Part shown: positions 24,299 through 40,386 of the stretch, one piece after another
Layout of the letters: every line of letters begins with the position of its first letter
How positions within the stretch are numbered: position 1 is the stretch's first letter
Source: Escherichia phage vB_EcoM_VR25
DNA length: 64,000 bases
Strand: one strand, 5' to 3'
Sequence record: NC_028925.1
The notes under the pieces: model-generated
Told to the model about the DNA's origin: nothing
What the model saw: the letters and a program-made list of their open reading frames with translations, nothing else
Database searches by the model: none
Translations under genes and position numbers: made by a program

Positions 24299-24528
24299 TT
24301 CACTTCCTCGCCAGTTGCGATATCATATTCCACCAAACGAAGGCCGTCGGTCCAACCCTGAACGGAGATATAGGTAGTTGGGTAAACCAGTTCTTTACCG
24401 TTCCATTGACCGCCGTCCCAGACTTCCAGAAAGTCTTGTTCACCTGGACCATTAAACCATTCAACGAATCTTTTCAAGGCTGCATCAGAGCCTTCAATCG
24501 TCAGTTTAGACATATTTTTTCCAGTCAC
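24295..24528 (-). CDS. Hypothetical protein, 72-77 aa
   Basis: Track ORF starts at GTG 24528; alternative ATG at 24513. Confidence 0.4.
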   Translation of the reverse strand: MTGKNMSKLTIEGSDAALKRFVEWFNGPGEQDFLEVWDGGQWNGKELVYPTTYISVQGWTDGLRLVEYDIATGEEVK

Positions 24529-24802
24529 TAATTAATCGCACATCCTGGTCATACGTCAGGAGGCTACGAGTTATAATACCCTTACATGGTCCAGAAATAA
24601 ATTCCAGAGTAAAGTAAGGAACCAACTTCATCAAGCGAATACTCGGAGCAGTGCAACGAAATCTGGACCCAATAAAAGGTCCAGACAAAAACACATACTC
24701 AAAGAAATTTGCTTTATTAAAGATTTCAAAATTCTTTACGAAATCTTCAGACCTAACCTTTGGAATAAAATAGATTTGGTCAAAAAGCTCTTCATGAGTC
24801 AT
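24506..24802 (-). CDS. Hypothetical protein, 98 aa
   Basis: Track ORF, ATG start; every codon checked against the sequence. Confidence 0.5.
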   Translation of the reverse strand: MTHEELFDQIYFIPKVRSEDFVKNFEIFNKANFFEYVFLSGPFIGSRFRCTAPSIRLMKLVPYFTLEFISGPCKGIITRSLLTYDQDVRLISDWKKYV

Positions 24803-25329
24803 TATTGCATTCCTATCACAAAGAATAACGGCAAAGGCTTATCACCTTGACACATAAATTTATTCATCATTACCTGATAAGCTTCATAGAACTTATCCAT
24901 TGCAGGGAGGCGAATAGGTTCTTCAATAATGATTAAAAGACGCGTAAAACGCAATCCACGGTACTTATGGAAATTATCTTCATCAAGGAAACTGCGTACA
25001 GTATCATAGACAACGAATCCAGGTCGTTCAACTTGAAGATGTGGTTGTGCCTTAGAAACCCGCTTTATTATATCACAGATTTCTCGGGAGCGATGTGAAG
25101 AACTCGACATAACAATCACATCATTACCCTTGGAAACCCAATCCGCAGCGAACTGTGCAAGGGCACTTGTTTTACCTGTTTGACGACCACCATCAAGTCG
25201 AAGAGTACCAAACTCTTGCATTCTTGAAGCAGGTTCATACCAGGTGTATTGGTCTGAATCTAAGCGTTCAATGGCGCGTTCAGCGAAGGCGTGCATTAAG
25301 GTTAGATAAATTGGAGTTAAAAATTTCAT
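24802..25329 (-). CDS. P-loop NTPase-like protein, 175 aa
   Basis: Walker A-like GGRQTGKTS and Walker B-like hydrophobic strand LLIIIEEP. Confidence 0.45.
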   Translation of the reverse strand: MKFLTPIYLTLMHAFAERAIERLDSDQYTWYEPASRMQEFGTLRLDGGRQTGKTSALAQFAADWVSKGNDVIVMSSSSHRSREICDIIKRVSKAQPHLQVERPGFVVYDTVRSFLDEDNFHKYRGLRFTRLLIIIEEPIRLPAMDKFYEAYQVMMNKFMCQGDKPLPLFFVIGMQ

Positions 25330-25490
25330 AGTTGTCTCTTAGTTGTAGGGCCATTCCTTGGCACATTAATTCGTCCATGTATCCGAATGTAAACCCCTTA
25401 CCGCACTCGGGCTCGACCTTATTACAGGTAGGGAAGGGTCCATCACTCAGAGGACACGACGTTCATGAGGAGAGGGTCGGTTTGCCTTTA

Positions 25491-25790
25491 TTAAAAAGAA
25501 CCAGAGCCTTTAATTGTGTTCTGGCGACCTTTATTTTCGAATTCAGAATGGTCGATTTCGTATGCTTGTGCTACGCCAAAGGCCTTTTTAACTTTAGATA
25601 AAGAACCTTTAGATGTAACAATATTAAAAGTATTGCCTTTGGTAAAATCAACCAAATCCACTTGCACACCCTGTTTACCGAGGCTTGCTACAATAGCATC
25701 AACATATTGTTGGTCTAAATTGCCTTGAACCCCAATTTGAAATGCTTTAGGAACTTTGGCTTCTGTGATAAATTCTTGATAAGTTAACAT
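25491..25790 (-). CDS. Internal-protein-like protein with N-terminal capsid targeting sequence (CTS), 99 aa
   Basis: Starts MLTYQEFITE, matching the T4 IP capsid targeting sequence MKTYQEFIAE; ATG start. Confidence 0.6.
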   Translation of the reverse strand: MLTYQEFITEAKVPKAFQIGVQGNLDQQYVDAIVASLGKQGVQVDLVDFTKGNTFNIVTSKGSLSKVKKAFGVAQAYEIDHSEFENKGRQNTIKGSGSF

Positions 25791-25819
25791 TATACACTAT
25801 CCCATCATAAAGTAAACAG

Positions 25820-26083
25820 TTACGCTTTACCGCCAGAAACAATACCAAAGGTCTCAAAGTCCCATTCAATATCGTCAACATCAACTTTCTTACCAGCAAC
25901 CACAAATGCGATTTCGCGACGTTTTGCATAGGTAACAATTTCTTTGCCATCGCCGCCAAAGAAAGAATAACCATTGCGCTTCATGGTGCCAAAGTCTTCA
26001 GCATCACCAGCGAAGGCACGGACTTTAAAAGCACCAGTAGGAGCTTTAGCAGATTCAGTAATAAATTCTTGATAAGTTTTCAT
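25820..26083 (-). CDS. Internal-protein-like protein with CTS, 87 aa
   Basis: Starts MKTYQEFITE; ATG start. Confidence 0.65.
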   Translation of the reverse strand: MKTYQEFITESAKAPTGAFKVRAFAGDAEDFGTMKRNGYSFFGGDGKEIVTYAKRREIAFVVAGKKVDVDDIEWDFETFGIVSGGKA

Positions 26084-26096
26084 AATGTCTCTTTAG

Positions 26097-26411
26097 TTAA
26101 GCTTTAGGGAAATCGCGCAAAAACGCATCATAAAGTTTATTACCAATGCGACGGAATGCTTTTGCAGCATGAACGTTATCTGGGTTTGCAATTTTAATCT
26201 GCATTACATGACTACCAGCCCATGATTTAGCTTCGTCATAATAACCTTTAATTTCTTTAATAGTCTTGCGTTTTCCACCAGGACCATCAACAGTAATTTT
26301 CCACGAACCAGTGCTTGTTTCACTTGGTGGGGTTAACTGTTCAATCCAGACATAACCACCTTCAACACGTTGTTGAGTAGATTCAGTAATAAATTCTTGA
26401 TAAGTTTTCAT
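26097..26411 (-). CDS. Internal-protein-like protein with CTS, about 104 aa
   Basis: In-frame MKTYQEFITE at 26411 (track ORF starts 4 codons earlier); preceded by TATAAT and leader. Confidence 0.6.
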   Translation of the reverse strand: MKTYQEFITESTQQRVEGGYVWIEQLTPPSETSTGSWKITVDGPGGKRKTIKEIKGYYDEAKSWAGSHVMQIKIANPDNVHAAKAFRRIGNKLYDAFLRDFPKA

Positions 26412-26458
26412 TTTATATTCCATGTTTGGTTGATAAAATCATTATACAACCTTTTTAG

Positions 26459-26875
26459 TTAAGCGTACACAGCTTTCCCATAGTATTTGTACCAGGTAGG
26501 CTTTTGAGAAATTTTCTCATTCAGTCTGGATTGACTGATTTCAATTGACCAGATTGATGGTTGATAATCATTCTTCCATTCATCAGGAATATCATTTAAA
26601 TCTTGGGTAGAAATATCTTTTATATTAAACCCTCGCTTTAAACATTCAGCAATAAGTTCTTGATGGCGGTTTTTAAGGAACAAAAGCTTATCATAAAAGA
26701 AGGTGACATGACCAGTTCCTAAAAGAAAAGATGATGGGATTTTAAAGTCAGACACCTTTTTACCATTTTGTACATGCTTACGAACAGCCCCAAACACGCG
26801 AGGAAGCTCACGGTATTCAGCCATAAGGTGTTGGTCAGCAAGTTCAGATACCAGGGTTAAATTAATGCGAGTCAT
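26459..26875 (-). CDS. denV: Endonuclease V (pyrimidine-dimer DNA glycosylase) DenV
   Basis: 138 aa, ATG start; [35 protein letters not shown]... near-identical to T4 DenV. Confidence 0.95.
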
Positions 26876-26904
26876 GTTTGTTCCTCCAAGTAGTTGATGG
26901 GATA

Positions 26905-26934
26905 ATAATACATCAATACGAGGAGGTTGTAAAC
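26905..26934 (-). promoter_or_regulatory. Early promoter upstream of denV
   Basis: Minus strand GTTTAC-18 nt-TATTAT then leader TCCCATCAACTACTTGGAGG; -35 overlaps the upstream stop. Confidence 0.55.
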
Positions 26935-27216
26935 TTATTTTGTGGAAGCAGCCGAGATATATTTTTCAAGACGCTGTTTCATCAGCGAGCCGTTCTTAGC
27001 GATTTCTTCCGGTTTATCGCACATACGCAATAGAGCTTCAAGCTTAGTGATATCAGATGTCCGCTCAAATTTGCGAGTATCTACCTTACTAGCAAGTTCG
27101 GAAATACGCGCTAACAGACTTTCGGCTTCTACCAAAGCTGTGCCCAGCTTAGTTGCAAATGCGTCAGTAGCTTCATTAAGAGTGGTCACGGTCAAAAATT
27201 CATTATAGGTTTTCAT
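26935..27216 (-). CDS. Internal-protein-like protein with divergent CTS, 93 aa
   Basis: Starts [10 protein letters not shown]...; ATG start; 3-prime to gene e as ipIII is in T4. Confidence 0.55.
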
Positions 27217-27697
27217 ATACTTTCCAAGTTCCTGTTTTAAATGTTGAGATTACACGTTTCGCTCGATTAGGTGTTTGTTTGTACCATTTGGATTGAGCCA
27301 GGTTAACAGCAGCTTCGTCCCAACGTTTCTGTTGAAGCAACCGAAGGGAGTTAGTAAACCCAGCAACGCCGGCTTCACCCATTTGGAAGACCATATTAAT
27401 CAGGGCACAGCGACGAACTTCGTCAAGACTATCATACACTGGTTTTAATTTAGCATTACGCATAACACTCGCACGTGCTTTTTCCACTGAACGGTTAAAC
27501 AAGGTTTCAGCTTCAACCTGGGTAATCCTACCGTTGCAGACGCGACCCATGAGCTTGTCGAGCTCGGCACGAGCAACATCTTTCGATGGGTTCTTAGTTA
27601 TCAGTTGCCCGATACCGATGGTCCAATATCCTTCGGTATCTTTATACAAATCCAACTTACAACCTTCATCTATGCGTAACATTTCGAATATATTCAT
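27203..27697 (-). CDS. e: Lysozyme (endolysin) gp e
   Basis: 164 aa, ATG start; [12 protein letters not shown]...[13 protein letters not shown]... very similar to T4 lysozyme. Confidence 0.95.
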
Positions 27698-39641: not shown

Positions 39642-39701
39642 TTTAACTCCGTTTGTTCGTGGGTGTAGGAACATAATACTGTGCCTACACTCATTTGTAC
39701 A

Positions 39702-40386
<685 letters not shown>

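Follow-up and report, generated by a model that had tools for sequence, protein, structure and literature searches.

According to the part of Arbiol et al. (2010) that cites it, Repoila et al. (1994) observed 'PeSL-like' elements at two internal-protein (IP) loci of T-even phages, elements described there as based on T4 early promoters and as having weaker, AT-rich stem-loops (PMC2839356). Promoter/stem-loop cassettes flank the two IP loci, and degraded copies of them are known (PMC2839356, PMC4122927). The PeSLs of RB49/phi1, PST/T4 and nt-1/KVP40 are also composite modules, consisting of a promoter, a stem-loop, a Shine-Dalgarno (SD) sequence and a start codon, which recombine and leave degraded (1/2) copies next to indels (PMC2839356, PMC4122927).

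The element described here was found in a 64,000-nt stretch of Escherichia phage vB_EcoM_VR25 (NC_028925.1), the whole of which we call the window. It shares with the T-even PeSL-like cassettes a GTTTAC early promoter directly before an IP gene in an IP locus, an AT-rich inverted repeat (in its relatives), and a setting in which gene content differs between close relatives. It also fits the PST/T4 PeSL consensus TTTACW-N17-TAYWAT. The difference is that the window keeps only the promoter half of the cassette, with the −10 itself supplying the start codon. Furthermore, the published PeSLs have their stem-loop, which functions as a terminator, immediately before the promoter, whereas the inverted repeat of this family straddles the −10. 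The published degraded PeSLs keep either the −35 only, or the −35 and the stem-loop; an intact −35/−10 pair lacking its 5′UTR is not among the types listed.

The window belongs to a Gaprivervirus, and the region considered here is 99.1% identical to phage vB_EcoM_VR7, in which the minus-strand gene order is nudE, e, denV, ip10, ORF127c (an IP gene), ip7, vs.8, vs.7. This is the second internal-protein locus of the T-even phages. ip7 is annotated in VR7, where it is sited between denV and vs.8, and the product of the window's gene matches PHROG 2667, 'internal head protein', with an E-value of 2.4e-41. The initial annotation had reported a promoter-like sequence, GTTTAC, 17 nt and TATAAT, whose −10 overlaps the ATG of this gene. 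Direct reading of the minus strand, ...gcgtaact GTTTAC tttatgatgggatagtg TATAAT G ttaactt..., confirmed the overlap base for base. The element is intergenic, between two IP genes, and its parts are as follows:

25491..25790, minus strand: ip7, encoding a 99-aa internal head protein (MLTYQEFITEA...), from the ORF, the PHROG match and the VR7 annotation
25788..25790, minus strand: ip7 start codon ATG, made of the last two −10 bases and a G
25789..25794, minus strand: −10 hexamer TATAAT, from direct reading and the pattern count
25795-25811, minus strand: spacer of exactly 17 nt, from direct reading
25812..25817, minus strand: −35 hexamer GTTTAC, from direct reading, of the T4 early-promoter type and the same in all aligned relatives
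25820..26083, minus strand: upstream IP gene, homologue of VR7 ORF127c, ending in a stop codon 2 nt short of the −35

The window contains a single exact GTTTAC-N17-TATAAT, where 0.03 would be expected; with one mismatch allowed there are four, against 0.65 expected. The ip7 reading frame has an in-frame TAG three codons upstream of the ATG ('mg*cimLTY') and contains no other ATG, so that the ATG at 25790-25788 is the sole start that keeps the capsid-targeting leader. This leader, MLTYQEFITE|A, can be compared with the MKTYQEFI(A/T)E type and its (I/L)xE cleavage motif: ITE is present, and Lys2 is replaced by Leu.

T4 early promoters have GTTTAC at −36 to −31 and the −10 hexamer at −12 to −7 (PMC1524935). 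Placing the −10 of the element at −12 to −7 gives the following prediction:

25780..25785, minus strand: predicted transcription-start zone, with +1 at about 25782, in codons 2-4 of ip7

It follows from this sigma-70 geometry that a transcript from the promoter would lack the ATG, as the initial annotation had proposed. The promoter does not stand upstream of the translation start, with the ribosome-binding site (RBS) on its transcript; its −10 overlaps the ATG. Nor does the arrangement fit a leaderless mRNA, because the A of the ATG falls at position −8 and there is no other suitably spaced −35/−10 pair upstream. The ip7 ATG is correctly annotated, but the adjoining promoter cannot serve ip7.

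The origin of this arrangement is seen in related phages. The ip7 loci were collected from IMG/VR and from GenBank phages, and the junction was aligned for 13 Gaprivervirus sequences. Eight Gaprivervirus genomes (VR20, SP18, TH57, TH54, P479, P896, phage 212 and ECML-359) carry an intact cassette at the same position, directly after the ORF127c stop codon, with the structure GTTTAC-17-(T/C)ATAAT-TATCCCATCAACTTGGAG(A/C)GAATAA(A)-ATGAAAACTTATCAAG. A ninth relative, TH41, has the same promoter and UTR, but ahead of a different, extra IP gene. The window, VR7 and TH15 are identical to these relatives as far as the final T of the −10, after which GTTAACTTATCAAG follows at once:

25788..25791, minus strand: deletion junction AAT|G, after which 27-30 nt of the relatives are missing (13-sequence alignment)

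When a 64-nt query spanning the junction was compared with 50,697 phage records, uninterrupted matches were given only by VR7, TH15 and the window itself, while other genomes across the junction, among them P479, SP18, VR20 and phage 212, matched it as two pieces lying 27-28 nt further apart. The missing 27-30 nt are, in the relatives, the 5′UTR, with the right arm of an inverted repeat, a GGAG Shine-Dalgarno sequence and ATGAAA. Judged from the alignment, the short form is the derived, deletion allele. Since three independent genomes (Lithuania, USA, this sample) share the junction, it is not an artefact. The initial annotation had offered, as one of two options, that the element is a cassette remnant, and this is borne out directly by the relatives, which carry the same promoter together with the 27-30 nt of 5′UTR that the window lacks.

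The IP content around the locus varies among relatives, marking it as a hyperplastic region; VR26 and P896 are without ip10 or ORF127c. The window has a 93-aa IP gene (MKTYNEFLT..., PHROG 3499) at 26935-27216 on the minus strand, between lysozyme e and denV, with 14 nt in common with the end of e. No gene occupies this e-denV position in VR7, and CJ20, P896 and phage 212 carry an IP gene there. In TH15 (locus L020, 510-1265), a 251-aa ORF with an HNH-like motif, EKHHILPKSMGGNDSIDNLVTLTAREHFIAH, lies between nudE and e. This ORF, absent from the window and from VR7, probably encodes a homing endonuclease.

The first codons of ip7 also differ between the two forms of the locus. Behind intact cassettes ip7 begins with ATGAAA (MKTY) in 15/15 cases, whereas the fused ip7 begins with ATGTTA (MLTY) in 3/3:

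25779..25790, minus strand: ATGTTAACTTAT (MLTY), with which the capsid-targeting leader begins in a variant form; the 65-aa IP gene of TH41/TH44 starts identically

This extra 65-aa IP gene (MLTYKEFMKEVKKLK...) lies between the promoter cassette and ip7 in TH41 (locus L023, 1566-1763) and also in TH44. It ends 8 nt before the ip7 ATG, and its first 12 nt are those of the window's ip7 start; in TH41 it begins ATGTTAACTTATAAAGAATTT behind a normal cassette, with the leader MLTYKEF. Our hypothesis is that the Leu for Lys at codon 2 is best explained by an earlier recombination with this neighbouring IP cassette. A crossover between the near-identical leader-coding sequences of the 65-aa IP gene and ip7 would have produced the ATGTTAACTTAT|CAAGAATTTATCAC of the window; either before or after it, 30 nt would have been lost by deletion between two AAT triplets (TATAAT|TATCCC...GAATAAAAT|GTTAAC). 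Alternatively, a VR20-like cassette would have lost 27 nt in a single deletion and undergone a double substitution of AA to TT. A search of the 50,697 phage records for the intermediate, an intact UTR followed by an MLTYQEF ip7, gave no match better than the ordinary MKTY forms, and the order and number of events therefore stay hypothetical. Under either origin, it is the −10 hexamer from which the present ATG is assembled.

The architecture of the intact cassettes indicates what was lost. In these, GATGGGATA in the spacer pairs with its complement TATCCCATC right after the −10; GGAG follows 5 nt after this arm, and the ATG lies about 8 nt beyond. The expected start point is the A seven nt after the hexamer (tatcccA). 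The same pair of arms recurs elsewhere in the window, in cassettes at 36055-36018 and 38418-38392 and in one upstream of 38665, and several window cassettes share the design ...GGGATA-gtg-TATAAT-TATCCCAT.... At the other cassette-like early-promoter sites on the minus strand of the window, the distance from the −10 to the start codon is 17-51 nt. For TH57 and TH41, the read-through RNA is predicted to fold into a 12-bp hairpin with the −10 in its loop (z −2.96 and −2.98, respectively), the outer helix pairing CUUU of the spacer with GGAG. The fused version has no significant predicted structure (z −0.35), and of the repeat one arm is left:

25798..25806, minus strand: GATGGGATA, left arm of the inverted repeat that flanked the −10 in the ancestor, orphaned in the window by deletion of its partner

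Four parts were lost in the deletion: the repeat's right arm, the region of initiation, the Shine-Dalgarno sequence and the original start context. Two features of the PeSL-like elements are consequently missing, namely the stem-loop, of which only the left arm remains, and the SD and start at the 3′ end, the GGAG having been deleted and the start codon fused to the −10. Since the element is homologous to complete cassettes but lacks these two features, we class it as a truncated derivative and not as a full member. A −10 that is kept and recruited as a start codon is a small variation on a known theme, outside the degraded types listed for PeSLs.

In T4, a hairpin on read-through RNA hides the RBSs of lysozyme e, soc, gene 49 and I-TevI, which become accessible when the RNA starts inside the hairpin. 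The intact cassettes of the relatives are predicted to be alike in this respect, with the SD paired on read-through RNA and the left arm absent from promoter-initiated RNA. However, e, soc, gene 49 and I-TevI use late promoters, and in the window element the masking mechanism is destroyed, not used. The T4 ipII and denV promoters resemble the intact relatives in their GTTTAC, their −10 in a hairpin loop and a right arm that opens the 5′UTR; unlike the window element they have the −10 31-66 nt before the ATG, and their cassettes are complete. In the T4 sequence (locus L025, 598-685 and 985-1050) the −10 lies in the hairpin loop with z −3.2 for denV and z −5.1 for ipII. The promoter of denV in the window (26868-26940, minus strand) is likewise predicted to place its −10 in the loop, with CCUCC pairing to the GGAGG SD (z −3.9), and in both the window and T4 the 5′ arm of the denV hairpin (CCUCC / CUCCU) lies in the promoter spacer and pairs with the Shine-Dalgarno sequence. 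On these predicted folds, read-through denV RNA should be translationally masked and promoter-initiated RNA should not.

A possible second −10/start fusion, at 39673-39702 of the window (minus strand), where the −10 TATTAT plus a G makes an ATG in frame with an IP-like gene, was rejected: a normal GGAG-ATG lies 31 nt downstream, and the overlap is incidental.

A different change to the same cassette is found in CJ20 (locus L017, about 2190-2216, homologous to window 25806-25789), where the 9-nt loop reads ATTATACAC, the exact reverse complement of the GTGTATAAT of other phages. This inversion between the arms flips the −10 and kills the promoter, with the UTR, the SD and the ATGAAA of ip7 intact. 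As the −10 is destroyed in CJ20 while the UTR and ATGAAA are kept, ip7 evidently needs no promoter of its own.

We propose the following explanation for the fused locus. The element is the 5′ half of a T-even IP-locus regulatory cassette; a full cassette runs from an early promoter of the T4 type, with an inverted repeat around its −10, through a short 5′UTR carrying a Shine-Dalgarno sequence to the start codon. As the sequence comparison shows, the phage lineage shared by the window, VR7 and TH15 lost 27-30 bp by deletion between short AAT repeats, from immediately behind the −10 to the beginning of the coding sequence, so that the −10 became joined to ip7 and TATAAT plus G now forms the only start codon possible. 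With the −35, the spacer and the −10 untouched, RNA polymerase probably still initiates here early in infection, but the RNA would start at about 25782, 5-10 nt inside ip7, would have no IP7 coding capacity and would run toward vs.8. IP7 would then be translated only from polycistronic RNA of the ip10 or denV promoters, for which there are two candidate sites:

26441..26470, minus strand: early-promoter-like site GTGTAC-18-TATAAT upstream of ip10, the likely source of read-through RNA covering ip7
26905..26934, minus strand: intact cassette upstream of denV, GTTTAC-18-TATTAT-TATCCCATCAACTACTTGGAGG-ATG, a second possible read-through source

Initiation of IP7 on such RNA could occur through a weak GGGA Shine-Dalgarno sequence 9 nt upstream, or by re-initiation after translation of the ORF127c homologue, which ends 29 nt before the ip7 ATG. 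The deletion also took away the SD-pairing hairpin predicted for the relatives' read-through RNA, so that the start site is now predicted to be unstructured. With the masking hairpin gone, the net outcome may be that ip7 went from cassette-driven to read-through-driven expression and was not silenced. We hold this explanation as a whole (deletion, promoter RNA unable to encode IP7, and read-through IP7) to be likely, and with a good deal of confidence.

The other option in the initial annotation was that ip7 is probably expressed only by read-through, and the evidence favours the two options together. The read-through option stands to the extent that read-through is the sole remaining route, that promoter-like sites exist upstream, and that a scan of the minus strand between the ip10 and denV promoter-like sites and ip7 found no terminator-like site; that ip7 is in fact expressed in this way is what we infer. 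The calculated anti-SD pairing energy is −4.0 kcal/mol for the fused ip7, compared with −2.9 for ORF127c, −3.3 for ip10 and −2.9 for vs.8. As a test of non-expression this energy does not discriminate, the fused ip7 being within the range of its neighbours. A GGGA pairing that is similar to or better than those of the neighbours makes translation of IP7 from read-through RNA credible.

The fused promoter itself may be weak or modest, given that it has no AT-rich upstream element and no canonical TGn and has lost its initiation region. UP elements and TGn are among the features of early promoters (PMC2988021). Here the upstream sequence, ggcggtaaagcgtaact, is the coding end of the preceding IP gene and not an AT-rich UP element; other cassettes of the window have aaaataa-type tracts upstream. 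At −15 to −13 a GTG precedes the −10, placing the TG one position off, and the conserved C-rich −3..−1/A+1 initiation region is absent. The element does not resemble a late promoter, for which TATAAATA is expected at −13 to −6, since its sequence is TATAATGT. No exact TATAAATA was found on the minus strand between 20.4 and 39.3 kb, and the minus strand at 25.7-30 kb has neither an exact late promoter TATAAATA nor a MotA-box middle promoter; late or middle transcription of ip7 therefore cannot be assigned. The main text of a T4 time-resolved omics paper leaves the IP genes unmentioned.

Any RNA made from the fused promoter would cross a further element downstream of ip7:

25330..25490, minus strand: conserved noncoding element, probably structured, between ip7 and vs.8, crossed by any transcript of the fused promoter

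This GC-rich element of 160 nt is conserved in >1000 T4-like genomes of several genera. In T4 it lies between denV and vs.8, and in Klebsiella phages and in one further locus (L012) it precedes an IP gene and not vs.8. RNAalifold analysis of 15 diverse copies showed compensatory changes in two helices, with 96.8% of cells paired and a covariation score of 0.28, compared with 0.125 in shuffles and ≤0.12 in slid controls. The closing helix AAAGG/CCUUU has GC<->CG and AU<->GC changes, and the helix CC(N)...(N′)GG, one position of which shows four types of pair, encloses an invariant hairpin, ACCU-GUAAUA-AGGU. A 3′ hairpin, GCCA-AGGAA-UGGC, stands just before the vs.8 start. A search of Rfam gave no match with an E-value of 1 or less for window 24500-27500, and nothing beyond noise for the vs.8 upstream element and for a locus (L123, about 560-830) on the 84-kb IMG/VR contig 3300045988_173923. 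The latter region, which is longer, GC-rich and intergenic and lies on a contig that is not obviously T4-like, shares a 39-nt core, AACCTGTAATAAGGTCGAGCCAGAGCGCGGTAATGGGTA, with the vs.8 upstream element. A vs.8-based search for related loci returned close relatives only. The element could act in cis as a regulatory RNA, or serve the IP locus as an anchor for recombination.

A rival to read-through expression that deserves consideration, although we judge it unlikely, is that ip7 is functionally dead in this lineage: with the RBS and its own transcript lost, little or no IP7 would be made, and the ORF would be intact because the event is recent. The loss of the GGAG Shine-Dalgarno sequence and of the promoter-proximal transcript would fit such a state, as would the absence of a late promoter TATAAATA or MotA box within 4 kb upstream, but the remaining GGGA equals the SDs of neighbours that are presumed functional. 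The pattern of substitution was also compared. The 15 intact ip7 genes differ at 53 codons, almost only synonymously, whereas the private changes of the fused lineage are K2L, A13V and L84F, with A65S in addition in the window, vs 3 synonymous changes. The resulting nonsynonymous:synonymous ratio of 4:3, compared with about 10:45 among intact ip7 genes, gives a Fisher p of about 0.04, but on tiny counts, and it is not significant without K2L, which perhaps arose by recombination and not by mutation. These numbers make relaxed constraint on the fused ip7 suggestive only. Against a dying gene, three isolates that differ in neighbouring gene content all keep the ORF free of frameshifts and stops, and another IP, encoded behind a normal cassette, has an MLTY leader as well.

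It is also conceivable, though quite unlikely in our estimate, that the fused arrangement was selected as an internal promoter for vs.8, for the early genes that follow it (vs.7 to regB) and for the noncoding element, uncoupling IP7 from early transcription. All three carriers have kept the −35, spacer and −10 without any change, but they are nearly identical here, so this preservation is uninformative on selection. The promoter is the nearest strong promoter-like site upstream of vs.8 (a GTTTAC at 25394 is without a good −10), and CJ20, with its inverted −10 and intact UTR, shows ip7 to be independent of it. However, the operon is already fed by upstream promoters, and a transcript from this site would have an untranslated leader of about 450 nt before vs.8 that might be exposed to Rho-dependent termination. 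Such polarity, with Rho-dependent termination of untranslated RNA, is established (PMC2988021).

The stronger proposal that the fusion is a selected switch in expression mode, from an own early transcript to read-through only, with the promoter kept for vs.8 and the noncoding element and the −10-donated start itself a selected feature, seems to us very unlikely. If it were true, the ancestral RBS would have been masked on read-through RNA by a hairpin embedded in the promoter.

Finally, a chance promoter resemblance or a sequencing or assembly artefact has a negligible probability and was rejected: although the genome is AT-rich, and a generic sigma-70 scan of the region gave 28 promoter-like sites vs 33.5 expected, with no excess, the exact pattern is expected only 0.03 times, the 37 nt from the upstream stop codon through the −10 are homologous to intact cassettes in ten relatives, and three independent genome records have the identical junction.

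We return, then, to the loss of the cassette's 3′ half by deletion, with read-through expression of ip7, as the preferred reading. The fusion is an ordinary evolutionary scar in a hyperplastic, cassette-shuffling region, and it leaves the current understanding of T4 gene expression unchanged. It does provide a clean, datable example of the decay of a regulatory cassette in the IP loci of T-even phages, in which the transcribed half of the cassette is lost through a deletion at microhomology and the −10 box is put to use as a start codon. Together, the relatives offer a natural three-way comparison, in which the cassette is intact (VR20, SP18, TH57), the promoter is dead and the RBS intact (CJ20), or the promoter is intact and the RBS deleted (VR7, TH15 and the window). 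The main value of the fused locus is as a natural mutant with which to test the coupling of transcription start and translation in these cassettes.
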